Of a stretch of DNA of 18,159 nucleotides, positions 1-12,223 are shown piece by piece. Within the stretch, counting starts at the first letter, position 1, and each line of letters opens with the position of its first letter. The stretch is from positions 1-18,159 of the forward strand of contig CAZFVS010000011.1 in the NCBI GenBank assembly GCA_964522265.1, given 5' to 3'. The notes under the pieces are model-generated. The model did not search any database, had not been told where the DNA came from, and saw only the letters and a program-made list of their open reading frames with translations. The stretch comes from an uncultured Gammaproteobacteria bacterium (GTDB lineage: Bacteria > Patescibacteriota > Microgenomatia > Daviesbacterales > UBA10151). The position numbers were made by a program, and so were the translations under genes.

Positions 1-1017
1 TTTTACTTTTGAAAGAAGATCCTGAATCAAGTTCAGGATGACATATGCTGATCCAAAAAAAGATAGGATTAAAAAAGGGTGAAGCGGAATAAGATGCCAG
101 ATATGCCCTTTATTGGAAAATAAAAAAGGGAGAGCGAATACTATAAAAAAAATAGAAAATATATAAAATCTTCTCTGTCTTAAAATCAATCCTAAGAAAA
201 TAGATACCACCCCTGGCCAAAACCATTTGCCAATCCCACTATGGAGATATTCTTTTAAAAGTTTAAAGTTTTCAAAATATGATGTTCTCACCTCTGCTCC
301 CGGAAAGCCTATCATAAAATACCTACTGAAAAAATCTGATTTATAAAAATATTGGCTGAAAAACCATCCAAGTATTAATGAGGAAATAAGTAACAGTGCA
401 TTTCTAAAATCTCTTAATTTTAGTTTGTTTTTCCAAAAAATAATGATGAGCGCAGGAACAATGGTTAAGGGCACCAGTGTTTTTGTCAGAAGTAATGCAA
501 CTAAGCTCAGGGAAAATGGCATTAAAAAATGCTTATTTTTACTGGCTTTCAAAGCAAATAAAACGGTTAAAATAAAAAGTGTTGTTAATATAGAATCCAG
601 GTTTCCTGATCTTGATCTATACAAGAACCAGGGAGACGAAGTTAATGCTAAAGCTGATAAAAAACCCACACTTTTGTTAAAAAGTTCCCGACCTAAAAAA
701 TAAAGACTAATAACCCCCAAAAAACCAATTATTGCAGGGGCAAACCTTACCCAAAACTCATTGATTCCAAAAAATTTAAAGGAAAGGGCAATCAGCCAAA
801 AACCAAAAGGCGGGTGGTCTGTATAAGAGTTTCCATTAAAAGTTAGGCGCAAAAAATCACCAGTTTTTAAGATATTCCTGGCAATCTCGGCATACCATGC
901 CTCATCCCACGACACCAGTGAAGACTGTCCCAGTTTATAGAAAAAAAGGGGGAGGGTAAGCGATAAAAGGGCAACGGCAATAATATCTAATTTAAATTTT
1001 TTCCAAAAATCAGTCAT
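1..1017 (-). CDS. GT-C fold membrane glycosyltransferase, ArnT/PMT-like (GT39/GT83-type). This is the N-terminal 339 codons; the C-terminus runs off the window.
   Basis: It is absent from the ORF track because there is no stop inside the window. I checked all 339 minus-strand codons from ATG (1017-1015) down to position 1 and found none. The translation starts MTDFWKKFKLDIIAVALLSLTLPLFFYKLGQSSLVSWDEAWYAEIARNILKTGDFLRLTFNGNSYTDHPPFGFWLIALSFKFFG. The WDEAWYAEIARNIL ... DHPPFGFW stretch lines up with the first-loop DExRYAEIxREM region of ArnT/PMT_2-type enzymes. The rest is polytopic and hydrophobic. The start overlaps the upstream stop by 8 nt (ATGACTGA). Confidence 0.8.
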   Translation of the reverse strand, partial: MTDFWKKFKLDIIAVALLSLTLPLFFYKLGQSSLVSWDEAWYAEIARNILKTGDFLRLTFNGNSYTDHPPFGFWLIALSFKFFGINEFWVRFAPAIIGFLGVISLYFLGRELFNKSVGFLSALALTSSPWFLYRSRSGNLDSILTTLFILTVLFALKASKNKHFLMPFSLSLVALLLTKTLVPLTIVPALIIIFWKNKLKLRDFRNALLLISSLILGWFFSQYFYKSDFFSRYFMIGFPGAEVRTSYFENFKLLKEYLHSGIGKWFWPGVVSIFLGLILRQRRFYIFSIFFIVFALPFLFSNKGHIWHLIPLHPFLILSFFGSAYVILNLIQDLLSKVK

Positions 1018-1753
1018 ACTTGCCCTGAAGATCGTTAAATTTAATCCGTAAAATATCTCTAACCGCCTCCAGGGAATCTTTGACAATTTGCACCTGTTCA
1101 GTCCCAACATGATGCCAATCTACAAAAACACCAGCTATTTTCAAATTTTTTTTCTTTGCAATAAACAAAGCCTCAACGTCAAAACCTGCATTCACAGCTG
1201 CACCGGAAGCCTTTGATCTCTTCCAATCCTTAAACATAGGTTTAAAAACTGTAATAATCGCCTTCCTGTTAAACCCTTTAAAGCCGCACTGGGTATCGGC
1301 AAAAGGCAGACCCAAAAAAATATTTCTGACCAAAGTAAACACCCATGCTGCTAATTTTCGTAAAACAGGCGCTCCTTTTCTGCCTGAACGGGATCCAATC
1401 ACAATATCATACCCGCTTTTAAATTTCGGTAACAATTTGTCAATTTCTGTAATCGGGGTCGCTTGATCCATATCAGTAAATAGTGCAATATCACCTTTGG
1501 ATTTCAACATGCCTGTCATCACTGTAATAGCCTTCCCCCCATGTAAATTCTTAATCAGTTTGAAGTTCTTTTTACTTTTTATCTCCTTTTCAACCACGCC
1601 AATCGTATTATTGGTTGACCCGTCATCTATTATAAGAACTTCATACGGGTATCTCTGTGTTTTCAGATAACTATCAATTTCACCAATCGTCTGTCTTTTT
1701 AAATTAGCTGCTTCATTATAGGAAGGTACAATTACAGATACTTTTGTTGTCAT
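1010..1753 (-). CDS. GT2 (GT-A fold) polyprenol/dolichol-phosphate hexosyltransferase-like (ALG5/DPM1/GtrB-like)
   Basis: 247-aa ORF with the motifs VIVPSYNEAANL, LIIDDGSTNNT and FTDMDQATPITEIDKLL. Their order is typical of lipid-phosphate sugar synthases of family GT2. It has an ATGA overlap with the upstream gene and an 8-nt overlap with the downstream gene. Confidence 0.8.
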   Translation of the reverse strand: MTTKVSVIVPSYNEAANLKRQTIGEIDSYLKTQRYPYEVLIIDDGSTNNTIGVVEKEIKSKKNFKLIKNLHGGKAITVMTGMLKSKGDIALFTDMDQATPITEIDKLLPKFKSGYDIVIGSRSGRKGAPVLRKLAAWVFTLVRNIFLGLPFADTQCGFKGFNRKAIITVFKPMFKDWKRSKASGAAVNAGFDVEALFIAKKKNLKIAGVFVDWHHVGTEQVQIVKDSLEAVRDILRIKFNDLQGKYD

Positions 1754-3270
1754 AGCTGGAAATGGCTTAATTTAAAAAGCCTAACTCCATTAGTACTTTT
1801 TTCCCAATCTATTTTACTCCAACCAAAAGCAGCTATCTCATACTTAGGATGACCAACGGGTTTGCATACTTTATCTTCACAAACTACAAATAACTGGTCT
1901 GTAATTTCAAAAGGTACTTTTTTGGGTTCATATCCATATAAATCTAAGTAATATTGGTATGCAGCATCATAGTTGTGCTCGGCAATTAGGGCAAAATTAA
2001 ACGGCTTGTTTCCGGATGCAGCAATAATACTTTTAGAAATTTCCTGTGTTCTTTTAAGCTGATTGTTTGGGGTACTAAATAATGGGCTTCGGGCAATACT
2101 TACTATCATTAGAATTAAAACCAAAATAATCATCCCCGCTTTTAAATATTTTTCTATACGCCATGCGGAGCGAATTGTTTGCGTTAAACCACCTAACAGC
2201 AAAAACGGTACAGGGTTTAAAAATCCCAAATAGTGATCATAAATTGTCTGTTTGTATAATGATAACCCTAAAATTCCCCCTACCATCCAAACCCCCAAAA
2301 CCAACATTGGCCAGCTTAAAGCTCTTTCTTTTACCCATTTGTAAAGAGTAATCAGTAAAGGTATTAAAACCAAGGCTGATATAAGTTGAACCAACCATCT
2401 ATTTTCTCCCGTGATATATCTTTCAATAAGATTATGCGTATAAATAGGATAAATCCTTCCTAAGGCATTCAAAATATTTAAGTTGACTGTTGTTTCCCTG
2501 TCACCAAAAAAGAACTTTGAAAAAGCATGAAAATTCATAAAACCATGCCGGAAATCAAATATAACCGGGGGGGACATGAGTATTGCAAACAGTATTCCGG
2601 CAAGAATTGTAAAGACAATGAATTTCTTCAAATCTTTTTTACTTATTTTGGTTTTGACTAACTCATAAATCCATAAAACTCCGGCAATGGGCAACAGTAT
2701 TAAGGATAAATAATGCATTTGGATAGCAAATGCAACTGCTAAACCTGAAAGAAGCAGCCACCTGAAATCTTTATATTTTCTTATGTGGTAAAAACCAATT
2801 ATTGCAAGCAGCGCAAAAAAGGGTGCCGGGTTAGGGTTCCATGAGGAATGTGAATAGATAATATTTACAGGCGATAAACTATATAGAACTGATGAAATTA
2901 CAGCTGCAGATTTTCCAAACCATTCACGCGCCAGATAATAAATTAATCCAACGGTAAGCGTCCCCACCAAAACCACCATACCTGCTGCTGCAACTGGGTT
3001 CAGCCAAAAAATAGCCATTGGTACGGACATCATGTAATAGTACAGTGGCCCGTTATACATATCTCCGATAGAGGTAGGCGGCCCAATAAGCGGGATGTGG
3101 TGCTCCACTAACATCTCTTTGATTATTAAAGCGTCTCTTCCTTCATCACCCAGAAAAAACATATATTGGTCAATCTTATAAAACCTTAATGCTCCGCTGA
3201 TCAAAATGATTATTAATAATACGCAGGTCTCTTTTTTGTTATTTCTGATCCATTGAATAATTTTTTTCAT
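1750..3270 (-). CDS. GT-C fold membrane glycosyltransferase, ArnT/PMT_2-like, with a C-terminal soluble domain of about 110 aa
   Basis: 506-aa ORF with many hydrophobic helices. The N-terminal loop FFLGDEGRDALIIKEM resembles the acidic loop-1 motif of ArnT/PMT-type GT-C enzymes. The non-hydrophobic tail runs from SPLFSTPNNQ to SHFQL. It lies 5 nt downstream of a GT2 gene. Confidence 0.7.
   Translation of the reverse strand: MKKIIQWIRNNKKETCVLLIIILISGALRFYKIDQYMFFLGDEGRDALIIKEMLVEHHIPLIGPPTSIGDMYNGPLYYYMMSVPMAIFWLNPVAAAGMVVLVGTLTVGLIYYLAREWFGKSAAVISSVLYSLSPVNIIYSHSSWNPNPAPFFALLAIIGFYHIRKYKDFRWLLLSGLAVAFAIQMHYLSLILLPIAGVLWIYELVKTKISKKDLKKFIVFTILAGILFAILMSPPVIFDFRHGFMNFHAFSKFFFGDRETTVNLNILNALGRIYPIYTHNLIERYITGENRWLVQLISALVLIPLLITLYKWVKERALSWPMLVLGVWMVGGILGLSLYKQTIYDHYLGFLNPVPFLLLGGLTQTIRSAWRIEKYLKAGMIILVLILMIVSIARSPLFSTPNNQLKRTQEISKSIIAASGNKPFNFALIAEHNYDAAYQYYLDLYGYEPKKVPFEITDQLFVVCEDKVCKPVGHPKYEIAAFGWSKIDWEKSTNGVRLFKLSHFQL
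2567..2573. repeat. G7 homopolymer (C7 on the coding strand) inside the 506-aa GT-C gene
   Basis: Counted directly: ataaccGGGGGGGacatg. The coding strand reads ATG TCC CCC CCG GTT, encoding MSPPV. Confidence 0.9.
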
Positions 3271-3275
3271 TTTTT

Positions 3276-3980
3276 TTATTTAAAATTTAATTCCAACCAA
3301 AATTTCATAAAATCCCTAAAACTTCTTAGGACAACATAAAGATTTGCACCCGTTGCTATGCCGAATTTCCTGGGATAATGGTGTACCCCGACTTCAGCAA
3401 ATCTATATCCTTTACGTTTTGCCTTTACCAACATTTCTATCTGTGTTACTTTTTCTTTCGCTATCAAAGGCTGGATGCTATCAAAAACCTCTCTTTTGAT
3501 CATCTTGAACCCGCATGAGTAATCTTTGACATGCAGGCCTAAAAAAATTTCAGCCAGGGTCTTCCAACCCCATGTAAAAACTTTTCTTAAAAACGGATCA
3601 GCCCGGGTTAACCTATACCCTAAAATTAAATCCGCCTGGTCAGCTTTTTCTAAAAATTTGGTAATTTCTGAAAAATCAAACTGCCCATCCGAATCCATAA
3701 ATGCCACCCATGGATATCTGGAAGAAACAAATCCGGTCTTTAAAGCATCACCATACCCTTTATTTACCCTATGATTAATCAACCTAATTCTTTTATCTGT
3801 TTGTTCCAGCTCTGCAACAGTAGCCGCTGTATTATCTTTTGAGCCATCGTTCACAACTATAATCTCATAATCTTTAAGTTCTAACCCATCCAAGACTTTT
3901 TTAACATCTAAAATAGTTTTTTTAATATTTTCTCCCTCATTATATGCCGGAAAAAATACGGAAAGACTTTTTACAATCAT
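3276..3980 (-). CDS. GT2 polyprenol-phosphate glycosyltransferase-like (DPM1/GtrB/ArnC-like), short soluble form
   Basis: 234-aa ORF with the motifs SVFFPAYNEGENI, IVVNDGSKDNT and AFMDSDGQFDFSEITKFL (DxD region). It is the first gene of the minus-strand GT2>GT-C>GT2>GT-C series. Confidence 0.8.
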   Translation of the reverse strand: MIVKSLSVFFPAYNEGENIKKTILDVKKVLDGLELKDYEIIVVNDGSKDNTAATVAELEQTDKRIRLINHRVNKGYGDALKTGFVSSRYPWVAFMDSDGQFDFSEITKFLEKADQADLILGYRLTRADPFLRKVFTWGWKTLAEIFLGLHVKDYSCGFKMIKREVFDSIQPLIAKEKVTQIEMLVKAKRKGYRFAEVGVHHYPRKFGIATGANLYVVLRSFRDFMKFWLELNFK

Positions 3981-4010
3981 TCTAATATGCTAACATCAAA
4001 ATGTAGCCCT

Positions 4011-4024
4011 GTCATCTTGATGAC
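4011..4024. promoter_or_regulatory. 14-bp perfect palindrome GTCATC-tt-GATGAC in the 53-bp divergent intergenic region; candidate operator or 5'-UTR hairpin
   Basis: Read directly. GTCATC (4011-4016) and GATGAC (4019-4024) are exact reverse complements. The site ends 9 nt before the ATG at 4034. Confidence 0.3.
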
Positions 4025-4033
4025 CCTTCGAAT

Positions 4034-5215
4034 ATGAACAAAGAAGTATTTAAGGTTTTTTTAATGATAGATTTAGCGGCAATTATTATTACATTACTCA
4101 TATGGTTGCCTCATTTACTTACAATCAAAAGCTTTTTCAACCTTGATTTTAGCAGCGGATTCAATACAATCTACAGGAATTTCGACGGATTGGAGTATGT
4201 CGTGATAACCAAAAGTTTTTACAACCCAAACTTGATTGCTAATTTACCCCAATCTCTTCCTGCCACTTATTATGCCTCCCATTTTCCTCTTTATTCAATT
4301 TTCATTTTACTGCTTGCACCATTTTTAGGTTTTCTGAAATCCATGTTGTTTGTCCCTTTTGTTTTTACTATATTTTCTGCTAAAGCATTTTATTTACTGA
4401 TCAGAGACTTTAAACTATCCAACCATCCGTTTTGGCTCACTCTCTTATTTTTAGTTTTGCCTGCGAGGTGGCTGATTGTCCATAGTGTCGGATCTTCAGA
4501 ACCTATGTTTATATTTTTCATAATCACCGCTCTTTATTGTTTTATGAAATTTGAGCAGTCCCGGAAATGGCTATGGATTTACCTTACCGGATTGTCAGGC
4601 CTTTTTGCCCAACTCACCAGACCACCGGGTATTTTGCTTTTTGTTGCATTAGGTATTTACATATTATGGTCCGTCATTGCGAGCCACGTTCATTCACTAA
4701 ATGCGACGTGGCAATCTAATATCAAAAAAGTGCTTTCATACCATCCCCTGCTGCTTATCCCATTAGGCCTTTTTGCAGTTTTTTACTGGTTTGGGATTTC
4801 ATATCATGATTTTTGGGCTTATTTTCACTCAGGCGACAATATCCACTTAACTTTTCCTCCATTTCAGGTTTTTGATAAACATCAATTTTGGGTAGGAGAT
4901 ATCTGGCTTGAGGATATCATCTATATTTTTATCCTGGGTTTTTTTGGAGGAATTTATTTACTCAAACAAAAATTGTACCCATTAGCATTTTTTGTACTCA
5001 TTTATATGGTCGCCTCAAGCATGGTCGTGCACCGTGATATCGCCAGATACACTTTGCCTATTTTTCCGTTTCTGCTGATCGCTTTTGAAAAAATTTTAAC
5101 CTCCAAGGAATTTAAAATTGTTTTCGTAATAATAGCTTTAGGTGTTTATCTATATACCCAAAATTTTATTATAGAAAATGTGGCCCCTGTGCCAAATTTA
5201 GGAGCATTTAACTGA
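4034..5215 (+). CDS. Polytopic membrane protein, probable third GT-C-type glycosyltransferase (PIG-V / mannosyltransferase-like or related)
   Basis: 393-aa ORF, strongly hydrophobic with at least 9 helices. The loop after helix 1, YRNFDGLEYVVITKSFY, has the acidic D-x-x-E-Y pattern seen in loop 1 of GT-C enzymes. It sits inside a glycosylation island. The family assignment is tentative. Confidence 0.5.
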   Translation: MNKEVFKVFLMIDLAAIIITLLIWLPHLLTIKSFFNLDFSSGFNTIYRNFDGLEYVVITKSFYNPNLIANLPQSLPATYYASHFPLYSIFILLLAPFLGFLKSMLFVPFVFTIFSAKAFYLLIRDFKLSNHPFWLTLLFLVLPARWLIVHSVGSSEPMFIFFIITALYCFMKFEQSRKWLWIYLTGLSGLFAQLTRPPGILLFVALGIYILWSVIASHVHSLNATWQSNIKKVLSYHPLLLIPLGLFAVFYWFGISYHDFWAYFHSGDNIHLTFPPFQVFDKHQFWVGDIWLEDIIYIFILGFFGGIYLLKQKLYPLAFFVLIYMVASSMVVHRDIARYTLPIFPFLLIAFEKILTSKEFKIVFVIIALGVYLYTQNFIIENVAPVPNLGAFN

Positions 5216-5217
5216 TT

Positions 5218-5838
5218 ATGATTAAAGATATCCTTAACGGACATTTCCGTTTTGCAGATAGCATCAACCCTTTTGTTAAAAGTTTTATAATTTCTGAAAG
5301 TTTTTTTTGGACATCATGGTCACTTTTTACGCCGATTTTTGCAATTTTTGTAACCAGCAAAATTTCAGGAGGTAATATCCAAGTTGCAGCATCAACATTC
5401 AGTATATATTTTGTGGCAAGAATAATATCCGAGATTTTAACAAGTAAAATCTCATCAAAACTGGGCATCCGTGAAAAAATTTCATTGGTTGTTTTAGGAA
5501 TCTCTTTGGTTAGTATTTCCTATATCGGGTTTGCTTTTACAACCACCGTATTTCCGCTTTATATCTTCTGGATCATTTGTGGCTGGGGTTTTGGCATAGC
5601 AACTCCTCCAAAACTTTCACTATTTTCAACACATTTAGACAAAAGCAAGGAAACAGTGGAATGGGGTGCAACAGATTCCATCAATCTTACCCTGATGGCA
5701 CTTTCTACACTACTGGGAGGTTTTATTGCCAACCAATACGGCTTTAAACCATTATTTCTTTTAGCAAGCATTATTAATATTTTTGCAATAATTCCGTTTA
5801 TTATCTACAAAATCTCAGCAACTCAGCAAAATAATTAA
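5218..5838 (+). CDS. Six-helix membrane protein resembling one half of an MFS transporter
   Basis: 206-aa ORF starting 2 nt after the upstream stop. I count six hydrophobic segments. The loop SKISSKLGIREKISL between helices 2 and 3 resembles MFS motif A (G-x-x-x-D-R/K-x-G-R-R/K). Confidence 0.45.
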   Translation: MIKDILNGHFRFADSINPFVKSFIISESFFWTSWSLFTPIFAIFVTSKISGGNIQVAASTFSIYFVARIISEILTSKISSKLGIREKISLVVLGISLVSISYIGFAFTTTVFPLYIFWIICGWGFGIATPPKLSLFSTHLDKSKETVEWGATDSINLTLMALSTLLGGFIANQYGFKPLFLLASIINIFAIIPFIIYKISATQQNN

Positions 5839-5845
5839 TTATATA

Positions 5846-7030
5846 CTAATTTTGCTCATGCTTCCAGGTTACAAAGTGGTTTATTGTAAAATTCCATATT
5901 AAGACTGGCGGTATGGTTGCAAAAAAGTAGAGGTTATAAAATGCGATTTTAATCCCCAAAAATAAAGCAAACCCGTCACCATAGACCATATGCAGAAATT
6001 TAACGATTAAAACGCTGATCGCCAGTCCTCCAAGACTTACTAAATTAAAAATCCCCAATTTTTGCCAGAAAGTGCTTTTTGTTTTTCTGTGTCTGAACGT
6101 CCAAATATTATTTAAACTAAAATTATTTAGAATCGCTACCTCTGTAGAAAATCCTTTGGCTGTTGCCGGTCTAAACCCCAAAAAAGAGATAAAAAAATTA
6201 TAGAAAATAAAATCTACCGCAGTCCCTATAAAACCAACCACCCCAAACTTAATAATTGTTTTTGCCCTTCTCGAATAATAAAAGAGTGGAAAATCAATCC
6301 CCCATTTGTGGAGTCTGGCATCAATAGCATAAGTTATTACGTCATAAGTATAATTAATAACTTTATTTTTAGAATAACCTTCATGCCTATTTCGAAAAAC
6401 CAAGGGTACCTCTTTATATTTTGCTCCAGCTAAAATTGCTTCATTTAAAAAAGCCGGTTGTATAATAAATGTCTGCTCCTTCCAGGGTAGTCTTTTCAGA
6501 TTAATCCTTTTAAAAAGGGCTGGCGTAAATGCTCTTGCTGAATTGGTAAATTCCTTGATACTAAAGGGGCCCATTATAAGTCTGCAGATAAGGGAGGCTC
6601 CTGCGCTAAAAAGTCTCCTTTGAAAAGATAATCTATTCTGACCACCTTCAACAAACCTGGAACCAAATACAAAATTATATCCTTCTTCCAGCGCACCAAT
6701 CAACCTTGGCAAAACATCTGCCTGTACCTGTCCGTCTGCATCAAGCTGAACCATAATATCCGGTTTTAAACTCTTCAGAGAATAGTTGTGACCTTCTATA
6801 AGGCCTACTCCCAATCCTCTTCCTACTTTAATAACATGAATCCTTGGGTCTTTTCTTGATAATCCTTCAGCCAGTTCTCCTGTCCCGTCAGGGGAATTAC
6901 TGTCAGCAATCAAAATCTCAATACTATAACCGGGCAGGTTTTCCTCTTGTTCCAAAACTTCGTCAACAAATTTCTTGAGGCTATTTTTCTCATTATATGT
7001 AGGCAAAACAACTACTATTTTTTTTGACAT
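5846..7030 (-). CDS. Fusion of a polyprenol-phosphate mannose-synthase-like GT2 domain (DPM1/Ppm1-like) with a C-terminal GtrA-like four-helix domain
   Basis: 394-aa ORF. The N-terminal motifs VVLPTYNEKNSL, LIADSNSPDGT, VQLDADGQ and FGSRFVEGG match the DPM1-type pattern. The C-terminal part (IIKFGVVGFIGTAVDFIFYNFFISF ... ILNNFSLNNIWTFRH ...) matches the GtrA-family pattern. Confidence 0.8.
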   Translation of the reverse strand: MSKKIVVVLPTYNEKNSLKKFVDEVLEQEENLPGYSIEILIADSNSPDGTGELAEGLSRKDPRIHVIKVGRGLGVGLIEGHNYSLKSLKPDIMVQLDADGQVQADVLPRLIGALEEGYNFVFGSRFVEGGQNRLSFQRRLFSAGASLICRLIMGPFSIKEFTNSARAFTPALFKRINLKRLPWKEQTFIIQPAFLNEAILAGAKYKEVPLVFRNRHEGYSKNKVINYTYDVITYAIDARLHKWGIDFPLFYYSRRAKTIIKFGVVGFIGTAVDFIFYNFFISFLGFRPATAKGFSTEVAILNNFSLNNIWTFRHRKTKSTFWQKLGIFNLVSLGGLAISVLIVKFLHMVYGDGFALFLGIKIAFYNLYFFATIPPVLIWNFTINHFVTWKHEQN

Positions 7031-7051: not shown

Positions 7052-8131
7052 TTAGGAGAACTTAGCAAGATCGCTATCTACCATAATACCTATCAGTTCC
7101 CTAAATTTAATCTTCGCTTCCCATCCTAAAATTCTTTTAGCCTTAGCAGGATTTCCCCAAAGCGGAGCATGGCTTGGGCCGGTTTCCAGAGGCCTTAAAA
7201 AATCAGGGTTTCGTATTACATGGTCTCTCCAGTCCAAACCAACATGTTCGAAAGCAACTTCCAAAAGCTCTTTAATACTATGCGTCTCATTGGTAGCTAT
7301 AACAAACTCATCAGGCTCATCTTGCTGCATCATCAGCCACATGGCCTGGACATATTCCTTCGCATAGCCCCAATCCCTTTTGGTATCCAGAGCCCCCATT
7401 TCCAGTTTCCAATCTTTTGTGATAATTGGTTTACCAGCTTCATTTAAGGGGGGGGTTTTTACTTTATTTACAATGCAGGCCACCCCGACTGTTACTTTCC
7501 TGGTTACATATTGCATCCCCCTTCTTGGGCTTTCATGGTTGAATAAAATTCCGCAAACCACAAATAATTTCTCACTACCTTCCCGCAATATCCTGGCGTT
7601 GTGGTGTGCCAGCAGTTTTGCAGCCCCATAAGGGTTATTAGGTTTCATTAAAGTATTTTCATCTTGCGGTGCAACAGGAGGGGCTCCATATAATTCAGAG
7701 GTTGAAGCCTGATATACCCTCACACTACGCCCTGACCGCTTCAATCTTAAGGCAGATTCATAAATCCTCAAAGGGCCAAGTGCGTTTATATCAGAGGTAT
7801 AAACCCTTCTTTTGAAAGAGTCTGCCGGTGATGCCTCCGCACCCAAATTGTAGATTTCATCCGGTTTGAATTCTGAAACAGCAGCTTCAATAGATCTCTC
7901 ATCATCTAAACTTCCTCTGAAAAATTGGATTTCAGAGCGCAAATGATCAACATTGCCTAAATGCCCTGTACTGCTGCTGCGGATAAATCCTCCGACTTCA
8001 TAACCTTTTTCAAGCAAGAACTCCGCCAAGTATGAACCGTCTTGTCCTGTTATTCCGGTAATGAATGCCTTCTTTTTTTGAACAGTTTGAGCAGGTTGGT
8101 TTTTGTTGGAAACATCTCGTTGTTTAACCAT
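7052..8131 (-). CDS. gmd: GDP-mannose 4,6-dehydratase
   Basis: 359-aa ORF. The motifs KKAFITGITGQDGSYLAEFLLEKGYEV, QASTSELYG, NPYGAAKL, ILFNHESPRRG and KRDWGYAKEYV are canonical Gmd motifs. It carries a basic N-terminal extension of about 20 aa and a loop insertion (NKVKTPPLNEAGKPIITKDWK) relative to E. coli Gmd, judged from memory. Confidence 0.9.
   Translation of the reverse strand: MVKQRDVSNKNQPAQTVQKKKAFITGITGQDGSYLAEFLLEKGYEVGGFIRSSSTGHLGNVDHLRSEIQFFRGSLDDERSIEAAVSEFKPDEIYNLGAEASPADSFKRRVYTSDINALGPLRIYESALRLKRSGRSVRVYQASTSELYGAPPVAPQDENTLMKPNNPYGAAKLLAHHNARILREGSEKLFVVCGILFNHESPRRGMQYVTRKVTVGVACIVNKVKTPPLNEAGKPIITKDWKLEMGALDTKRDWGYAKEYVQAMWLMMQQDEPDEFVIATNETHSIKELLEVAFEHVGLDWRDHVIRNPDFLRPLETGPSHAPLWGNPAKAKRILGWEAKIKFRELIGIMVDSDLAKFS
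7448..7455. repeat. G8 homopolymer (C8 on the coding strand) inside gmd
   Basis: Counted directly: catttaaGGGGGGGGttttt. The coding strand reads AAA ACC CCC CCC TTA, encoding KTPPL. It is the longest G/C run in the window. Confidence 0.9.
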
Positions 8132-8152: not shown

Positions 8153-9043
8153 TTAAGAAAACGTGTCAATCTGTTTTTTAAAAGTCTTGATATTCTCTGC
8201 GTTTGTATGCAAGATCCCATCCCCAAATTTGCTGATGAATTTGGTTACATCCAAAAAACTATATTGCGACCTTGGTGCAATTCTGGTTTTATGGTACTGT
8301 GCAAAAGAGATTTCTCTGATCAACTTTTTATCTAAATTAAACTCCTCCGCTATTTGTTGGGCAAAATCATACGGGGTGGTAAAATCTGTTGAGCCGAGAT
8401 GAAATATGCCCTCTGTTTTACCAGTGATGATCTTGGCCAAAGCATGCGAAATATCATCTATAAATCCCGGAGTTATTTTCTGATTCTTAACTGCCACAAC
8501 TTCTTTTCCCATGCGCAATTGTTCTAAAAAAAATCTGCCTAAGTCTTTTTTCTGGGGGTAATGGCTTCTGTAAGGCATTTCAATTCTGAGAATTGAAAAA
8601 TCACATCCACTACCCTCAATAAACTCATCGGCAAAATGCTTGGTTTTAGCATACCAACCTAACGGGTTTTTTGTATCATCCTCAAGGTACGGACGGTCTT
8701 TTTTCCGACCGTCAAAAACATATGATGTCGAAAAATGAATCAGGAATTTTTTATTTTTTCGGCAAATTTGCGCCAGGTTTTTTGGAGCCAGAGAGTTTAG
8801 TTTATAAATAAACCCATCCTTATCCCCATTTTCTTTTTCTGCACCATCAACATCAGTATAAGCTGCAAGGTTTATAACTGTTTCAGGATTATTTTTTTCA
8901 ATGTAGGATTCCAATTTAGGCAGATCCAAAATATCCAGTTCATAAAGATCAGGCGCTAGAAATTCAAAAAGACCTTTATTAATTTCGGTAAATCTGGATC
9001 CCACTAAACCGCTTTCACCCAAAACCAGGATCTTTTTCTTCAT
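8153..9043 (-). CDS. rfbD: RmlD-family SDR 4-ketoreductase (dTDP-4-dehydrorhamnose reductase-like). The actual substrate is uncertain.
   Basis: The motifs MKKKILVLGESGLVGS, INLAAYTDVDGAE, HFSTSYVFDG, PLGWYAKTKHFAD (YxxxK) and VKNQKITPGFIDDIS follow the RmlD substrate-binding-domain pattern. I prefer the ATG at 9043 (296 aa) over the track start at 9073, because the longer form would overlap the rfbB 3' end by 29 nt and adds no Rossmann sequence. Confidence 0.7.
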   Translation of the reverse strand: MKKKILVLGESGLVGSRFTEINKGLFEFLAPDLYELDILDLPKLESYIEKNNPETVINLAAYTDVDGAEKENGDKDGFIYKLNSLAPKNLAQICRKNKKFLIHFSTSYVFDGRKKDRPYLEDDTKNPLGWYAKTKHFADEFIEGSGCDFSILRIEMPYRSHYPQKKDLGRFFLEQLRMGKEVVAVKNQKITPGFIDDISHALAKIITGKTEGIFHLGSTDFTTPYDFAQQIAEEFNLDKKLIREISFAQYHKTRIAPRSQYSFLDVTKFISKFGDGILHTNAENIKTFKKQIDTFS

Positions 9044-9044
9044 A

Positions 9045-10043
9045 TCAATAACCTTTCTGTGCTTTCCTATCAACCACAGGCCTGGATTTTTTTAAAGGTT
9101 TCCACCACCACATATTTTTTTTATACCACTCGATTGTTAGTTTAAATCCCCTATCAAAATCCATCTGCGGCACAAAGCCCAGTTTTCTTAATTTAGCATC
9201 GTCTATCGCGTACCTAAAATCATGCCCCAGTCTGTGTTCTACAAACTCAATCCATGCCTCATCCTTACCTAAGAGATCAAGGATCTTTTTAGTAATCTCC
9301 ATATTTGTGAGTTCTGTTCCTGAAATTAAATACTTTTCACCAACTGTACCTTTATTTAGAACAAAATCAATCGCCCGGCAATGATCTTCCACATATAACC
9401 ACTCCCTGATATTTTCACCCTTACCCATAAGCGGCACTTTTTTACCCATCAGTAAATTTGTGACAAATCTGGGTATTAATTTTTCAGGATCATGAAACGG
9501 CCCGAAATTGTCTGCACAATTTGTGACAGTTATCGGCAGTCCGTAGGTGATAAAATATGCAATAACTAATTGTTCTGCTCCACTCTTTGAAGCAGCATAT
9601 GGAGACCTGGGGGCAAAATTAGTTTCTTCGGTAAAAGGGGGGTCATCCAAACCCAAACTGCCGTATACCTCATCTGTTGAAATATGGTGAAACCTCTTAA
9701 CTTTATTTTTTAAAGCGCTGTCCAGTAAAACATTTGTTCCCAACACATTAGTTTTGACAAAAATAGTAGGATCTATTATTGACCTGTCGACATGGGTTTC
9801 AGCAGCAAAATGGACTACAATATCCACTCCTTCCATTGATTTTTCAACTATTTTTGCATCACAGATATCACCCTTGATAAATTGATAGTTTGGATTATCC
9901 TGAAAATCTTTTAAGCTTTCAACATGTCCTGCATAAGTCAGTTTATCTAAATTGACAATCCAATCTTTTGGGTGGTTTTTAAACCAGTACCTGATAAAAT
10001 TTGACCCAATAAAACCCGCTCCACCTGTTACAAGTAATTTCAT
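9045..10043 (-). CDS. rfbB: dTDP-glucose 4,6-dehydratase
   Basis: 332-aa ORF with the canonical RmlB motifs MKLLVTGGAGFIGSNFIRY, VHFAAETHVDRS, HISTDEVYG and SPYAASKSGAE. Confidence 0.9.
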   Translation of the reverse strand: MKLLVTGGAGFIGSNFIRYWFKNHPKDWIVNLDKLTYAGHVESLKDFQDNPNYQFIKGDICDAKIVEKSMEGVDIVVHFAAETHVDRSIIDPTIFVKTNVLGTNVLLDSALKNKVKRFHHISTDEVYGSLGLDDPPFTEETNFAPRSPYAASKSGAEQLVIAYFITYGLPITVTNCADNFGPFHDPEKLIPRFVTNLLMGKKVPLMGKGENIREWLYVEDHCRAIDFVLNKGTVGEKYLISGTELTNMEITKKILDLLGKDEAWIEFVEHRLGHDFRYAIDDAKLRKLGFVPQMDFDRGFKLTIEWYKKNMWWWKPLKKSRPVVDRKAQKGY

Positions 10044-10058
10044 TATTAAATATAATTC

Positions 10059-10772
10059 CTATTTCTTGGACCAGAAATTTCCTGCCTCAAGCAAGGTATC
10101 AAAAGTACCTGCATCCCTCCAATAACCCTTCAACATACTCCATTTGAGCTGTCTCTTTTCAATATAAAAATTATTGACATCCGTAATCTCCAATTCCCCT
10201 CTTGTTGATGGTTTAATTTTTTTTATAAAATTAAAGGCTTGATGGTCATAAATATATAGCCCTGTTACGGCAAAATTTGTATCTGGTTTTGCGGGTTTTT
10301 CTGTTATTCTTATAATCTTCGATCCATCTTCGGAGTCAAAGGTTGGTACACCAAAACGCTGCGGATCTGGTACTTCCTTTAAAAAAATCACCCCTCCACT
10401 GTTAAATTCCTGCACATCTTTTGATATATCCGCATCTGTGGTGTTATCCCCTAAAATCACAGTTACACTTTCACCGTCAAGAAAATCCTCCGCCAAAGAC
10501 AGTGCATCTGCAATCCCTCCTTCTTTCTCCTGGTATGCAAATTCCAGATGTTTTATGCCCAAATCACGTCCGTTTCTTAAAATTTGAATAAAATGTCCTG
10601 CATGAGGTCCGCCGACAACAACCATTATCTCTGCAATGCCGGCTTTGATAAGAGTGTTAATGGGATAAAAAATCATCGGTTTATTATAAACCGGAAGAAG
10701 ATGTTTATTGGTAACGTAGGTTAATGGGTATAATCTTGTACCCAATCCCCCTGCCAGTATAACGCCTTTCAT
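10059..10772 (-). CDS. rfbA: Glucose-1-phosphate thymidylyltransferase-like sugar nucleotidyltransferase (short RmlA form)
   Basis: 237-aa ORF. MKGVILAGGLGTRLYPLTYVTNKHLLPVYNKPMIFYP closely parallels the RmlA N-terminus. GGIADAL, VILGDN and EKP are also present. It is shorter than the classic 290-aa RmlA. Confidence 0.75.
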   Translation of the reverse strand: MKGVILAGGLGTRLYPLTYVTNKHLLPVYNKPMIFYPINTLIKAGIAEIMVVVGGPHAGHFIQILRNGRDLGIKHLEFAYQEKEGGIADALSLAEDFLDGESVTVILGDNTTDADISKDVQEFNSGGVIFLKEVPDPQRFGVPTFDSEDGSKIIRITEKPAKPDTNFAVTGLYIYDHQAFNFIKKIKPSTRGELEITDVNNFYIEKRQLKWSMLKGYWRDAGTFDTLLEAGNFWSKK

Positions 10773-11020
10773 ATTATTGTCCCTATAAAAATCACAATCA
10801 CTAAAACAGCTATTAAAATATATTCAATAATAGTCTCTAAAGTCAAACTTTTGTCAAAATAATGGTAGATTAGTGCTAAACTCATATAAATTACCGTTAC
10901 CGAAAAGATCAGTTCTAACTGTATTGTAGTTTTACTACGGAAAATAAAGCTGAGGATGATAATACCCAAACTAAGAGGTATTAGCAAGAAAAAGGCGTTA
11001 ATTTTAATCTTTTTAATCAT
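10769..11020 (-). CDS. Small three-helix membrane protein, function unknown
   Basis: 83-aa ORF, almost entirely hydrophobic. It has ATGA overlaps at both ends (with the CAP-domain gene and with rfbA), which argues it is translated. Confidence 0.6.
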   Translation of the reverse strand: MIKKIKINAFFLLIPLSLGIIILSFIFRSKTTIQLELIFSVTVIYMSLALIYHYFDKSLTLETIIEYILIAVLVIVIFIGTII

Positions 11021-11904
11021 AGTATGGCTCCAATATTTGAGTTTGCTAATGCGCTAGCTGCCACTGTAAGTAATGCCAGATGAGATAAATGTCTTGATGT
11101 AAGCCGGAAAACAGCTCTTTTTTTTAAAACATAAAGGTCCACTGTGATCAGTAATGCAACTAAAAATATCAGGCTAAAACCAAAATTCTTGGTCACCAAG
11201 TATGGGTCCAGTAAAACATTGTTGGATAATATCTCTTTTTGTACTCCTGCCCTGTTAGATTCAGGTACGGTTATAACCTGGCTGCCTGGTATCTTTTGAG
11301 TTGATTCCAATGTCTGCTGAGGAGATTGTGGAATCTGGGCTAACTCTTCGACAGGTGTACCAAACTCCTGAACTACTAAAATAGTAGGCTGGCCGTTTAA
11401 AGTTCCTTCCACCACAGCCATACCGATATTTTTATATTTTGGGTTGATTATGTTATCCCGATGGGTAGTAGATGCCATCCATGCTTCAACCACCTCGCTG
11501 GAGGTGTAGAAATTCCTTGCCAGATTTTCCCCTGCATTGGTAAATTTATAACCGGCTTTTTGTATAAAACCCCAGGGGTCTTTACCCGATGGGGAATAGT
11601 GTGCCCAATAATTTTCAGCAAACATATTTTCAGCCTTTGCTTTTGCAGCTTCATCAAGCCTTGGATCTTCAGTTACAGATGGCAAGCCCAAAGCTTCCCG
11701 TTTAGCATTTGTCAGCTTTATCAGCTCCTGCTGGTTTATATTTGAAGCAATCCCCAAAATCCCCGGCTTTATTGTTGAGACAAGATGCAAACCCATCTGC
11801 AACACAATAAAAATAGCTATGTAAACAGCCAAAGCCGGGGCTGAAATAAGATGGGCTTTTTTATGAGTTTGGGGATGAGGCAAAAAAAGATGTTTCCAGT
11901 TCAC
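11017..11904 (-). CDS. Membrane-anchored CAP/SCP (YkwD-like) domain protein
   Basis: 295-aa ORF with an N-terminal anchor (ISAPALAVYIAIFIVLQMGL). The central segment, NAKREALGLPSVTEDPRLDEAAKAKAENMFAENYWAHYSP ... AGENLARNF ... VVEAWMASTTHRDNIINPKYKNIGMAV, matches the CAP-domain pattern. A Q/P/S-rich linker and two C-terminal hydrophobic helices follow. Confidence 0.75.
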   Translation of the reverse strand: MNWKHLFLPHPQTHKKAHLISAPALAVYIAIFIVLQMGLHLVSTIKPGILGIASNINQQELIKLTNAKREALGLPSVTEDPRLDEAAKAKAENMFAENYWAHYSPSGKDPWGFIQKAGYKFTNAGENLARNFYTSSEVVEAWMASTTHRDNIINPKYKNIGMAVVEGTLNGQPTILVVQEFGTPVEELAQIPQSPQQTLESTQKIPGSQVITVPESNRAGVQKEILSNNVLLDPYLVTKNFGFSLIFLVALLITVDLYVLKKRAVFRLTSRHLSHLALLTVAASALANSNIGAIL

Positions 11905-11920
11905 AACTAAAGTATATCAT

Positions 11921-12223
11921 CTAACCATATAATAACTCCGTCTCCATTTTTTTACCGTTAACAGGAATTCCTAATGCAAACCCTAAGGCATTGGCAACAG
12001 AAACCCCAACCCTGATACCGGTAAAAGAACCGGGACCTGTTGCTACATTAACTCCGGTCAAATCCTGTAAAGATATCCCTGCTTTTTTCAACGCATTTTG
12101 AATAAGAGGAAGTAAGGCTTGAGAACCGAGTTGCTGTTTGCTGACAAGTACTAATTTTGTCTCTTTTAGCGAAACTTCAACCTCCCCCTGTTTTGTTGTG
12201 TTTATCATCAAAGTTGCTTTCAT
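11921..12223 (-). CDS. tsaB: Minimal TsaB/YeaZ-like protein (N-terminal ASKHA subdomain only)
   Basis: 100-aa ORF. GVNVATGPGSFTGIRVGVSVANALGFALGIP is the hallmark TsaB motif. The alignment from memory to E. coli TsaB covers only about its first 100 residues. The next gene starts 16 nt downstream, so there is no room for a frameshifted C-terminal half. Confidence 0.7.
   Translation of the reverse strand: MKATLMINTTKQGEVEVSLKETKLVLVSKQQLGSQALLPLIQNALKKAGISLQDLTGVNVATGPGSFTGIRVGVSVANALGFALGIPVNGKKMETELLYG

Follow-up and report, generated by a model that had tools for sequence, protein, structure and literature searches.

A probable envelope-glycosylation island of putative lipid-phosphate sugar synthases and GT-C glycosyltransferases in Candidatus Daviesbacteria

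In mycobacteria, polyprenyl-phosphate sugar pathways comprise Ppm1 with Pmt, PimE and Mpt, as well as PpgS (Rv3631), Rv3632 and the GT-C Rv3779; one or few lipid-linked donors supply many GT-Cs, and the pathway genes are scattered over the genome. Mtb Ppm1 also provides a precedent for a synthase fused to a membrane-protein partner, although that partner is an Lnt-like domain and not a GT-C, and synthases without transmembrane (TM) segments (e.g., PpgS and human DPM1) occur in the polyprenyl-monophosphate class. Several GT-A/GT-C pairs can be found in a single genome, as in L. lactis (CsdAB, CsdCD and CsdEF, with CflA), B. subtilis (three pairs, i.e., CsbB/GtcA/YfhO, YkoT/S and YkcC/B), S. mutans (SccN/M and SccP/Q) and S. 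pyogenes (GacI/J/K/L), with the streptococcal loci being linked to rhamnose (rml) genes (PMC8035078, PMC11754754). The same logic has been reviewed in variants with a cytoplasmic GT-A, a small three-TM helper protein or a Wzx-type flippase (PMC8035078). Type-III DPMS was strictly defined by its authors as restricted to hyperthermophilic archaea (PMC5526996, PMC12992685), and the DPMS TM domain has been proposed to be able to flip the product (PMC12992685). The first-pass annotation of the locus described here had not recognized its triplicated arrangement as a characterized system; the novelty was overstated, as multiple GT-A/GT-C pairs, some of them beside rhamnose genes, were already characterized (PMC8035078, PMC11754754). 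The mechanism of lipid-carrier glycosylation itself is well known; new here are its likely occurrence in a CPR lineage, a group for which it is not known to have been described, the large extent of the island and its preservation among relatives, and the covalent GT2::GT-C fusion of GT2b with GTC2.

The window (i.e., the whole stretch of DNA analyzed, 18,159 nt) derives from Candidatus Daviesbacteria (Microgenomates, CPR), an ultra-small bacterium from groundwater. Positions 1-7030 and the adjoining sugar-nucleotide genes, which extend to ~11020, likely form the proximal section of an island for envelope glycosylation that spans at least 17 kb. All open reading frames were found exactly where they had been annotated. 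On the minus strand, GT2b (3276-3980, 234 aa), GTC2 (1750-3270, 506 aa), GT2a (1010-1753, 247 aa) and GTC1 (1-1017, N-terminal 339 aa, truncated by the window edge) form a single run headed by GT2b, and each of the junctions previously reported was read in the sequence: GT2b and GTC2 are separated by 5 nt (AAAAA), GTC2 and GT2a overlap in an ATGA, and the GT2a stop covers the GTC1 start by 8 nt (ATGACTGA). Translational coupling is suggested by the two overlaps. GTC3 (4034-5215, plus strand, 393 aa) is divergently transcribed from GT2b and is followed by a half-MFS gene (5218-5838, plus strand, 206 aa), which meets the DPMS-like synthase gene (5846-7030, minus strand, 394 aa) tail-to-tail. The 7-nt gap described for this arrangement was found, with half-MFS as the partner of the synthase gene; GTC3, which had been placed there as well, lies upstream of half-MFS on the plus strand.

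The three proposed GT2 genes all encode a Pfam Glycos_transf_2 match (GT2a, E = 4e-23; GT2b, E = 3e-32; DPMS-like synthase, E = 9e-25), and DPMS, ArnC and GtrB are their best solved (PDB) relatives. Each protein contains a single DxD motif (DMD94 in GT2a, DSD96 in GT2b), and both QxxRW and TED are absent from all three. GT2a and GT2b are soluble proteins with zero TM segments and are putative synthases of a polyprenyl-phosphate hexose (GT2a, ALG5/DPM1/PpgS-like) and a polyprenyl-phosphate sugar (GT2b), respectively. Near-full-length NCBIfam matches of the GT2s were obtained for ArnC, PpgS, Dol-P-hexose transferase, AglJ and PgfS, with residues 3-211 of the 234 in GT2b covered by ArnC (E = 4e-19), PpgS (residues 8-211, E = 1e-15), Dol-P-hexose transferase and AglJ. 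A role as processive synthases is not supported, as PgaC, NodC and CelA match the N-terminal ~100 residues only and the QxxRW and TED motifs are lacking; the GT2s instead resemble the polyprenyl-phosphate sugar synthases ArnC, DPMS, GtrB and PpgS. GT2a has been kept in all 14 related loci, and some of its homologs carry the JGI name "dolichyl-phosphate beta-glucosyltransferase".

GT2b and GTC2 constitute one ORF in five of 12 loci. Among the best 120 homologs, 16 are GT2b::GTC2 fusions with an in-frame, seamless junction, and the fusion also occurs in ~10 distinct 50%-identity clusters (31-52% identity). GT2a is fused in none of its own best 120. As in-frame fusion across many lineages is hard to explain otherwise, a direct functional link between GT2b and GTC2 is suggested. 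The N-terminus of GTC2 ahead of TM1 reads as basic, making it compatible with a cytoplasmic GT2 domain, and since many relatives have GT2b covalently joined to this cytoplasmic N-terminus, it is probably the partner GT-C that keeps GT2a and GT2b at the membrane. These observations bear on a distinctly improbable alternative, namely that the short GT2s are ordinary cytoplasmic glycosyltransferases extending an Und-PP-linked repeat unit or modifying a soluble acceptor, with GT-C adjacency reflecting a shared polysaccharide locus and no donor-transferase coupling. The lack of TM helices in GT2a and GT2b would fit such a role, as would their weaker, mostly N-terminal matches to PglI, WcaA, EpsD/E and TuaG and the closure of the island by a Wzx flippase, a type usually handling Und-PP-oligosaccharides. 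However, many lineages have GT2b joined in-frame to a GT-C, polyprenyl-monophosphate sugar synthases (ArnC, DPMS, GtrB) rank first among the solved relatives of GT2a and of GT2b, and these enzymes, along with PpgS, match GT2b over nearly its full length. TM-less polyprenyl-monophosphate synthases are moreover known, including PpgS, human DPM1 and, separately, the cytoplasmic GT-A variant of PMC8035078.

The third synthase combines a GT2 catalytic domain with the C-terminal GtrA-like TM domain noticed earlier, which was recovered as Pfam GtrA_DPMS_TM at residues 261-389 (E = 1e-19). The "synthase-GtrA fusion" is not a new one, as the protein is homologous over its full length to the type-III DPMS whose structure was solved from Pyrococcus furiosus (PfDPMS, 5MLZ; E = 2e-31, residues 2-370, 34.7% identity over 329 aligned; E = 1e-43 in a profile comparison). 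D97-A98-D99, Q101, R125, R138, S142, K184 and N303 are kept, as are the metal and Pren-P phosphate ligands of PfDPMS; HPP of the archaeal enzyme is replaced by VQA, and N248 by D273. The DPMS-like gene is the last of an rml/gmd operon, and its co-transcription with 6-deoxyhexose genes raises the possibility of a donor sugar other than GDP-mannose.

A Pfam PMT_2 or PMT match was obtained for each of the three membrane proteins that had been called GT-C-like. GTC1 (PMT_2, E = 1e-20; PMT, E = 6e-9; STT3, E = 2e-7) is ArnT-like, with ArnT as its sole solved sequence relative (5EZM, E = 1.4e-15, WDEAWYAEI aligned to PDEGRYAEI). GTC2 (PMT_2, E = 2e-12) has an ArnT-like fold with a C-terminal extracytoplasmic alpha/beta domain, and GTC3 (PMT, E = 1.7e-7, 31.5 bits vs. 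a gathering score of 22.7) is a minimal GT-C without a large soluble domain. The AlphaFold2 models of GTC2 (pLDDT 88.8, pTM 0.89) and GTC3 (pLDDT 88.5, pTM 0.90) were both identified as GT-C using Foldseek. For GTC2, the best match was ArnT (5F15, E = 4.5e-9, TM 0.59/0.56) and the remaining significant matches were GT-C throughout; for GTC3, the best 45 matches all have the GT-C fold, nearly all being GT-C glycosyltransferases (including STT3/PglB with TMq 0.52-0.57, Pmt4, ArnT, Emb, ALG and PimE). The acidic loop-1 motifs that had been quoted are present, and the acidic residues are invariant or nearly so in homologs: G41-D42-E43-G44-R45-D46 of GTC2 is invariant in 38 sequences, and D51, G52, Y55 and K60 of GTC3 are invariant in 40, with E54 conserved in at least 90%. 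GTC3 has 1418 homologs and was kept in 14 of 14 loci. None of the proteins reached an NCBIfam equivalog cut-off (for GTC1, 59.6 vs. 567 for ArnT and 21.6 vs. 800 for Pmt), and homology thus gives no basis for assigning a sugar or an acceptor.

The PMT or PMT_2 matches in all three GT-Cs, and the presence of Pmt4 and Pmt1/2 among the structural matches, would agree with Ppm1/Pmt-like protein O-glycosylation, in which Ser/Thr residues of surface or secreted proteins (e.g., pilins, S-layer-like proteins or the neighboring membrane-anchored CAP-domain protein) would receive the lipid-linked sugars. The CAP-domain protein is syntenic in all loci, is flanked at each end by TM segments and contains a Pro/Gln/Ser/Thr-rich linker, and pilin glycosylation has been predicted for CPR bacteria (PMC11623550). 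We consider protein O-glycosylation possible but not likely, as PMT_2 is a generic GT-C model that includes ArnT-type enzymes, ArnT and STT3/AglB surpass Pmt as structural matches, and the Pmt equivalog was matched by GTC1 only, at the low score given above.

CPR bacteria are regarded as monoderm and without LPS, which makes lipid A unavailable as an acceptor. An ArnC/ArnT-like modification of membrane lipids or lipoglycans would place sugars onto a glycolipid or a lipoteichoic-acid (LTA)-like anchor. ArnT tops both the sequence matches of GTC1 and the structural matches of GTC2, ArnC is among the best GT2 matches, and CsbB/GtcA/YfhO glycosylate LTA along the same lines (PMC8035078), with a YfhO-like protein present in L019. 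Such a modification is nonetheless improbable, given that CPR bacteria would offer no lipid A, that all ArnT and ArnC equivalog scores lie far under their cut-offs and that LTA synthase was not found in the loci.

Upstream of the DPMS-like gene, separated by a 21-nt gap, lies a GDP-mannose 4,6-dehydratase gene (7052-8131; GDP_Man_Dehyd, E = 3e-96; syntenic in 13 of 14 loci), preceded, likewise on the minus strand, by genes for an RmlD-type reductase (8153-9073; RmlD_sub_bind, E = 5e-56), an RmlB-like dTDP-glucose 4,6-dehydratase (9045-10043; GDP_Man_Dehyd, E = 9e-70; Epimerase, E = 4e-61; 61-89% identity to relatives) and a short RmlA-like sugar-1-phosphate nucleotidyltransferase (10059-10772; NTP_transferase, E = 5e-54; syntenic in every locus). 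The likely true start of RmlD is an ATG at 9043 that overlaps the RmlB stop; its ortholog in L001 begins MKKKIL. The proposal that the locus adjoins its own nucleotide-sugar supply thus holds as far as these conserved neighbors are concerned but is incomplete, as rmlC is absent from the window. The rml-DPMS operon is headed by a gene for an 83-aa protein (10769-11020, minus strand) with three hydrophobic segments predicted as TM helices and no Pfam family match, which occupies the same position in 14 of 14 loci (tblastn, E = 3e-27 to 7e-7) and, by analogy, might serve the TM-less GT2s as a membrane partner. Half-MFS is indeed half-size, corresponding to the N-terminal half of the MFS fold only (MFS_1, E = 2e-13, profile positions 3-171 of 347). 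It was found in the window and L001 only, its slot elsewhere being empty or occupied by EamA (L019), NUDIX and an IS200-like transposase (L004) or an unknown ORF (L009); half-MFS is accessory cargo outside the core.

Gene order proved to be conserved in 14 related Daviesbacteria loci, including one complete 820-kb genome. In relatives, the complete island comprises three GT2s and five to six GT-Cs along with a giant membrane protein and a Wzx-type flippase, and the "three pairs" of the first-pass annotation result from the position of the window edge. GTC1 is an accessory member: its orthologs (58-86% identity) occur in only three of the 14 loci (L001, L018 and L019; 462 aa in L001, indicating a complete length of ~462 aa), and in loci without it that are long enough, GT2a is directly followed by another GT-C. 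Neither Wzx nor a free-standing GtrA is encoded in the window; in six loci a Wzx gene follows the GT-C array. The 3:5-6 ratio of GT2s to GT-Cs misfits a simple one-synthase-one-transferase scheme, and the absence of GTC1, which overlaps GT2a in the window, from most relatives also counts against the model favored here, as do the lack of rmlC, Wzx and a free-standing GtrA in the window. The ratio, and the fixed order in which L018 and L019 carry these genes with the Wzx flippase and another giant polytopic protein, might be expected if a few lipid-linked monosaccharide donors fed five to seven GT-Cs acting in turn, with the Wzx-type protein flipping a primer on which they would assemble or lengthen a glycan, similar to the ER-lumen ALG3/9/12 steps or to LM/LAM/arabinogalactan synthesis in mycobacteria. 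Consistent with such an assembly line, the GT-Cs span very different families (PMT/PMT_2, YfhO-like and PTPS_related; hhalign probability for GTC2 vs. GTC3, 4.7%), suggesting differing acceptor specificities, and the structural matches include ALG12, ALG9, Emb, Aft and PimE. It remains a rather unlikely explanation, because a priming phosphoglycosyltransferase was not found in the 20-kb loci, the GT2b::GTC2 fusion and gene overlaps favor dedicated synthase-transferase couples for at least those members, and several GT-Cs also share one donor in ordinary decoration systems (S. mutans, PMC11754754).

Overall, the island most likely serves to charge a lipid carrier in the membrane with sugars and to move these to a cell-surface molecule. 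The general logic proposed initially, in which cytoplasmic GT2s make polyprenyl-phosphate sugars that GT-Cs use outside, is supported by the GT-C folds and acidic loops, the class of the GT2s and the conserved gene order, the three points on which it was examined. From the folds, motifs, homologies, gene fusion and synteny we infer the donor lipid, sugars, flipping step and acceptor as follows. At the cytoplasmic face, the three GT-A/GT2 enzymes would each use a nucleotide sugar to attach a single sugar to polyprenyl phosphate. Candidates for flipping the lipid-linked sugars are the GtrA-like domain, which may help the DPMS-like synthase to flip its own product, and/or the Wzx-type flippase at the far island end of relatives. 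The GT-Cs (GTC1-3 here, five to six in the complete island) would then transfer the sugars outside via acidic residues of the first external loop. Our best guess for the acceptor, and the weakest link of the model, is a cell-wall glycopolymer, possibly with 6-deoxyhexose, based on the invariable rml/gmd linkage and on a parallel with how rhamnan is decorated in streptococci and lactococci. This is a conjecture, as the 14 loci showed neither a priming phosphoglycosyltransferase nor a rhamnan synthase nor an LCP ligase, except for one LytR_C protein (L002).

Compared with known systems, the island resembles the mycobacterial PpgS system in that a soluble GT2 synthase would work with a small membrane protein and a GT-C, yet its proteins have no close sequence relationship to those pathways. 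As in ArnC/ArnT (5EZM/5F15, 9HWJ), the ArnT loop-1 DE..YAE motif is aligned in GTC1; however, ArnC has two C-terminal TM helices that neither GT2a nor GT2b shares, other arn genes are absent, and lipid A is not expected in a CPR monoderm. GtrB (structural homolog sll0501, 5EKP) is among the best GT2 relatives and the GtrA fold is present as a domain, but unlike phage or enterobacterial GtrABC the window has neither a free-standing GtrA nor a GtrC-family transferase, and O-antigen is not expected. The DPMS-like synthase shares with type-III DPMS (5MLZ; PMC5526996) its GT2 catalytic domain, interface helices and GtrA-like four-TM domain, as well as DAD..Q and the equivalents of R117, R131, S135, K178 and N277; in contrast, it is bacterial and presumably mesophilic, and has V-Q-A for HPP in DADxQHPP (x = Gly) and an invariant Asp for N248. 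Like the Gram-positive multi-component (three-component) transmembrane glycosylation systems of L. lactis, B. subtilis, S. pyogenes and S. mutans, the island has a putative lipid-phosphate sugar synthase (GT-A/GT2) adjacent to a GT-C transferase with an acidic motif in an external loop. It differs from them in that no protein is at equivalog level with any characterized member, GT2a and GT2b are TM-less with GT2b fused to its own GT-C in many relatives, one synthase has the archaeal type-III DPMS architecture, and all units lie in one fixed-order island of a CPR host in which GT-Cs outnumber synthases.

ORF calls on the window returned exactly the gene coordinates of the first-pass annotation, and the minus-strand junctions it described were borne out by the sequence: 5 nt separate the synthase gene GT2b (3276-3980) from the membrane protein gene GTC2 (1750-3270), GTC2 shares an ATGA overlap with the second synthase gene GT2a (1010-1753), and GT2a and GTC1 (1-1017) overlap by ATGACTGA. 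Pfam searches gave Glycos_transf_2 matches for all three GT2 genes (E 4e-23, 3e-32 and 9e-25), PMT_2 or PMT matches for the three polytopic proteins proposed to be GT-C-like, GTC1, GTC2 and the plus-strand GTC3 at 4034-5215 (E 1e-20, 2e-12 and 1.7e-7, the last above the gathering score), and a GtrA_DPMS_TM match (E 1e-19) for the GtrA-like C-terminus of the third synthase (DPMS-like; 5846-7030, minus strand). For half-MFS (5218-5838, plus strand), the MFS_1 match covers the N-terminal half. The 7-nt tail-to-tail gap at 5838/5846 is present, but the neighbour across it is half-MFS and not GTC3, which lies upstream of half-MFS. GTC1 is clipped by the window edge, with 339 of about 462 aa retained as judged from L001, the locus of the closest relative. 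A promoter and terminator scan performed at chance level (43 found versus 40.4 expected, and 11 versus 10.8), so operon structure is read from gene overlaps and spacing only. With a G+C content of ~36% and close homologs labelled Candidatus Daviesbacteria or Patescibacteria in the homolog search, the window's host is a Microgenomates-group CPR bacterium. Several public MAG records (L005-L009; CAYSNN01, CAZLKE01, CAYMZB01, CAYMIA01 and CAYWKL01) carry the same island synteny at 58-65% identity, and their “uncultured Gammaproteobacteria bacterium” titles are probably wrong.

Searching with the DPMS-like protein recovered genomes of 12 related species, all of which keep the gene order at 50-90% protein identity: TsaB, CAP, an 83-aa ORF, RmlA, RmlB, (RmlC), RmlD, GDP-mannose 4,6-dehydratase (GMD), DPMS-like, GTC3 on the opposite strand, GT2b, GTC2, GT2a and further GT-C genes. 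The same order was found in two additional loci, one of them from a complete 820-kb genome. Comparison with these loci revealed that the earlier description of three synthase-transferase pairs reflects where the window ends, as the full ratio is three GT2 to five or six GT-C proteins. After GT2a, L018 and L019 encode a GTC1-type GT-C (457-464 aa) and a second PMT_2 GT-C (495-522 aa), followed by a PTPS_related GT-C-clan protein and a Wzx-type flippase (Polysacc_synt_3), with a YfhO-like protein in L019 only. GTC1 orthologs (58-86% identity) occur only in L001, L018 and L019; in the remaining 10 loci of sufficient extent, a GT-C of ~500 aa (type B) comes directly after GT2a. In six related loci a Wzx-type gene stands at the end of the island; its counterpart here would lie past the left edge of the window, within which neither a free-standing GtrA nor a Wzx was found, a GtrA-like domain being present in DPMS-like. 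At the island end, the Wzx-type flippase is followed by a giant protein of >1,100 aa (L018:18980-22220; L019:20025-21521; 51% identical between the two) with a signal peptide, a conserved external domain of ~480 aa, a long polytopic region and no Pfam match. At 17 kb or more, the island takes up about 2% of the complete 0.82-Mb Daviesbacteria genome, and its order is kept across species with only 50-65% protein identity; an island this large and conserved in such a reduced genome suggests an important envelope function.

Some positions within the island vary. An extra PMT_2 GT-C is inserted between GTC2 and GT2a in L008 (14676-16154), and a LytR_C-domain protein follows GT2a in L002 (15592-16689), a possible sign that the island is connected with the attachment of cell-wall polymers. 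The slot between DPMS-like and GTC3 holds half-MFS in the window (5218-5838), half-MFS with extra 851-aa and 241-aa ORFs lacking a Pfam match in L001 (11598-15495), an EamA transporter in L019 (7240-8076), a NUDIX protein and an IS200-like transposase in L004 (11184-12331) and a 301-aa ORF of unknown nature in L009 (11190-12095), and can also be empty. Half-MFS was considered as a dedicated flippase and rejected, because no locus other than the window and the closest relative has it and the slot carries unrelated cargo in other loci; it is accessory.

In a PDB search, the top matches for the three GT2s were Pyrococcus furiosus dolichyl-phosphate mannose synthase (PfDPMS), ArnC and GtrB/sll0501. 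Near-full-length NCBIfam matches were to ArnC, PpgS, a haloarchaeal Dol-P-hexose transferase, AglJ and PgfS, whereas the processive enzymes PgaC, NodC and CelA matched only over the N-terminal ~100 residues. Each GT2 carries one DxD motif (DMD94 in GT2a, DSD96 in GT2b and DAD97 in DPMS-like) and has neither QxxRW nor TED, and JGI labels GT2a homologs “dolichyl-phosphate beta-glucosyltransferase”. By these matches, the GT2s appear to fit the polyprenyl-monophosphate sugar synthase group (DPM1/ALG5/GtrB/ArnC/PpgS) rather than the processive synthases, and we infer that they form Pren-P-sugars from NDP-sugars. DPMS-like has a transmembrane (TM) domain, but GT2a and GT2b contain no hydrophobic segment and thus lack the own-TM membrane attachment seen in GtrB, ArnC and CsbB. 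PpgS and human DPM1 are TM-less synthases of this class, so the absence of a TM segment does not exclude synthase function. A cytoplasmic GT-A variant offers a further precedent (PMC8035078).

The GT-C assignment was followed up at the level of fold and motif. GTC1 could be aligned by sequence to ArnT (5EZM; E 1.4e-15), with its loop-1 WDEAWYAEI aligning to PDEGRYAEI of ArnT and D38-E39 corresponding to the ArnT DE. Sequence searches of the PDB yielded no matches for GTC2 and GTC3, for which structure prediction and Foldseek were therefore needed. The AlphaFold2 models were confident, with pLDDT and pTM values of 88.8 and 0.89 for GTC2 and 88.5 and 0.90 for GTC3. ArnT was the top Foldseek match of GTC2 (E 4.5e-9, TM 0.59/0.56), followed by AglB, ALG12, STT3, Pmt4, PglB, Aft and Emb, with ranks 1-44 all GT-C; for GTC3, the top 45 matches all have the GT-C fold and are nearly all glycosyltransferases, unrelated folds appearing only at a probability <0.1. 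Among 38-40 homologs, G41-D42-E43-G44-R45-D46 of GTC2 and D51, G52 and Y55 of GTC3 are invariant, while E54 of GTC3 is kept in at least 90%, and these acidic residues lie just after TM1 in both predicted models. The sequence and model evidence thus places GTC1-3 in the GT-C superfamily with an acidic motif in the predicted first extracytoplasmic loop, as had been proposed, and all three would use a polyprenyl-phosphate-linked sugar donor.

GTC1 scored 59.6 bits against the NCBIfam ArnT equivalog NF009784 (cut-off 567) and 21.6 bits against the Pmt model NF058602 (cut-off 800), and GTC2 and GTC3 matched neither. As no protein reached any NCBIfam equivalog cut-off, none was filed as ArnT, Pmt, ArnC or GtrB. 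The window GT-Cs are also far apart from one another, with identities of 25-29% over short stretches and a non-significant profile-profile probability of 4.7% between GTC3 and GTC2, and the idea that these two are recent paralogs was dropped. Pairwise identity among the three GT2s is 22-31%. Judged by this divergence, the GT-C and GT2 families are old and specialised and not recent duplicates.

GT2b and GTC2, separate genes in the window, form a single ORF of 716-726 aa in 5 of the 12 loci and of 708-739 aa in 16 of the 120 top homologs. In-frame fusions, encoding proteins of 716-739 aa, are located at L004:13624-15792, L005:12417-14576, L007:12329-14479, L011:12405-14585, L012:12398-14569 and L018:10001-12220. 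The fusion junction is seamless: the amphipathic helix that ends the GT2 (...KLW) is continuous with the basic N-terminus of the GT-C and its TM1, and the junction is about 12 residues shorter than in the two-gene form. An exhaustive search found about ten distinct 50%-identity clusters matching both halves of the fused query at 31-52% identity. The fusion is strong evidence that synthase and transferase work together, and it explains how a TM-less synthase gets to the membrane. A GT2a::GT-C fusion, sought as a second Rosetta stone, was found in none of the 120 top homologs. No description of a GT2/GT39 fusion turned up in the literature searched, which is not proof of novelty; natural GT2::GT-C fusions could offer a tractable model for the coupling, across the membrane, between making a lipid-linked donor and using it.

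The synthase-GtrA fusion highlighted in the first-pass annotation is not a new architecture but a solved one, as DPMS-like is a full-length homolog of the type-III dolichyl-phosphate mannose synthase (DPMS) of P. furiosus. It aligned to 5MLZ over query residues 2-370 (E 2e-31, 34.7% identity), and a profile of 14 orthologs matched the same structure at E 1e-43. Type-III DPMSs are defined by motifs, and their GtrA-like TM domain is proposed to flip the product (Gandini et al. 2026, PMC12992685). These motifs comprise 89-DADxQHPP-96 (x = L, F or Y), the Dol-P phosphate ligands R117 (in SRY), R131, S135 and K178, a polar pocket formed by N248 and N277, and the gating residue F338 (PMC12992685). 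DPMS-like shares the monomeric arrangement of a GT2 and a GtrA-like 4-TM domain and keeps the phosphate ligands (S124-R125-F126, R138, S142 and K184), with Phe replacing the Tyr of SRY. In contrast, its donor motif reads D97-A98-D99-G100-Q101-V102-Q103-A104, with VQA in place of HPP and Gly at x; D97, A98, D99 and Q101 are invariant in the 14 orthologs. N277 aligns with the invariant N303, whereas N248 aligns with an invariant Asp (D273). The alignments end before TMH4 and do not place F338, and an invariant F381-x-x-N384 in DPMS-like is spaced like F338..N341. Strict membership of the type-III family was rejected on account of the deviations at HPP, x and N248, although architecture and Pren-P-binding residues are common to both. 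DPMS-like is thus a bacterial relative of an archaeal enzyme that is itself proposed to flip its own product. Its donor sugar, to judge from these substitutions, may differ from that of type-III DPMS, and the position of its gene at the end of a 6-deoxyhexose nucleotide-sugar operon, together with the altered donor motif, makes an unusual donor possible.

Among the nucleotide-sugar genes upstream of DPMS-like, rmlC (dTDP-4-dehydrorhamnose 3,5-epimerase) separates rmlB from rmlD in 9 of the 12 related loci (L001:7466-8002) and immediately follows rmlB in L018 and L019. The window has a direct overlap of rmlB with rmlD (junction 9030-9085), and no rmlC was detectable anywhere (tblastn best E 0.04), leaving the local dTDP-L-rhamnose pathway incomplete unless rmlC is elsewhere in the genome. 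The TTG start called at 9073 for RmlD (8153-9073, minus strand) is probably wrong; an ATG at 9043 (MKKKILVLG) is likelier; it gives the same start as in the L001 ortholog and overlaps the stop codon of RmlB. The rml-DPMS operon is headed by an 83-aa ORF (10769-11020, minus strand) predicted to have three TM helices, which shares 4 nt with the CAP stop and another 4 nt with the RmlA start and holds the same position in 14 of 14 loci. It has no Pfam family, and its identification as a GacJ or GtrA homolog was set aside for want of a family match; by analogy with GacJ, Rv3632 and DPM3 it may be a helper of the TM-less GT2s. Beyond the CAP gene lies a TsaB-like ORF of 100 aa (11921-12223, minus strand), whose match to the TsaD/TsaB Pfam model (264 positions) is confined to positions 30-84. 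Every related locus has the short form (117 aa in L018), so it is not a local truncation.

The folds, catalytic motifs, homology classes, gene fusions, translational coupling and synteny described here agree with the logic of the earlier interpretation, which overstated the novelty and the three-pair framing. The three outcomes that the first-pass annotation named as refuting were checked and none was observed: membrane proteins lacking a GT-C fold or conserved loop-1 acidic residues, GT2s that group with processive synthases, and an arrangement kept in no relative. On the cytoplasmic side, each GT2 would load a single sugar onto polyprenyl phosphate, flipping of the lipid-linked sugar would fall to the GtrA-like domain, the distal Wzx-type protein or both, and the GT-Cs would pass the sugar on outside the membrane via their loop-1 acidic residues. 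As acceptor, a wall glycopolymer is favoured by analogy, given that the island is linked to rml/gmd genes and that streptococci and lactococci provide a precedent. Genes for the synthesis of such acceptors (LTA, WTA, rhamnan or SCWP polymers) were not recognised in the loci. Transfer to protein by O-glycosylation is a live alternative, and a CAP/SCP-domain protein encoded at 11017-11904 (minus strand), which has hydrophobic segments towards either end and a linker rich in Pro, Gln, Ser and Thr, is a conceivable surface acceptor; in every locus its gene keeps synteny with the rml genes. Another live alternative is a mycobacterial-type assembly line with sequential steps. A more far-reaching reading, which we consider improbable, is that of a self-contained, CPR-only extracytoplasmic glycan assembly line in which DPMS-like makes a Pren-P-6-deoxyhexose and the fusions couple synthesis, flipping and transfer; its donor is suggested by the constant co-transcription of DPMS-like with rml/gmd and by the altered donor motif (HPP to VQA, N248 to Asp). 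If it were true, Pren-P-rhamnose or Pren-P-fucose would be a donor class without prior description, and the GT2::GT-C fusion would couple the three steps in one polypeptide, possibly without a separate flippase.

CPR bacteria (Patescibacteria) are ultra-small and mostly uncultured, those studied live attached to other microbes, and to our knowledge their surface chemistry is essentially unknown. The literature searched held nothing relevant on GT-C glycosylation in CPR, Patescibacteria or Daviesbacteria, which again does not prove novelty, and a recent paper on Saccharibacteria terms their glycosylation “unexplored” (PMC11623550). The island offers a defined set of candidate genes for the surface glycans of CPR bacteria. 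Multi-pair systems as such are already characterised (PMC8035078, PMC11754754). Lactococcus lactis has three GT-A/GT-C pairs (CsdAB, CsdCD and CsdEF) that share one GtrA-type flippase, Bacillus subtilis also has three pairs, and the GacI/J/K/L variant, which acts on rhamnan, combines a cytoplasmic GT-A with a small 3-TM helper and a Wzx-type flippase (PMC8035078), while SccN/M and SccP/Q of Streptococcus mutans form two pairs inside a rhamnan locus (PMC11754754). [quoted passage not shown]
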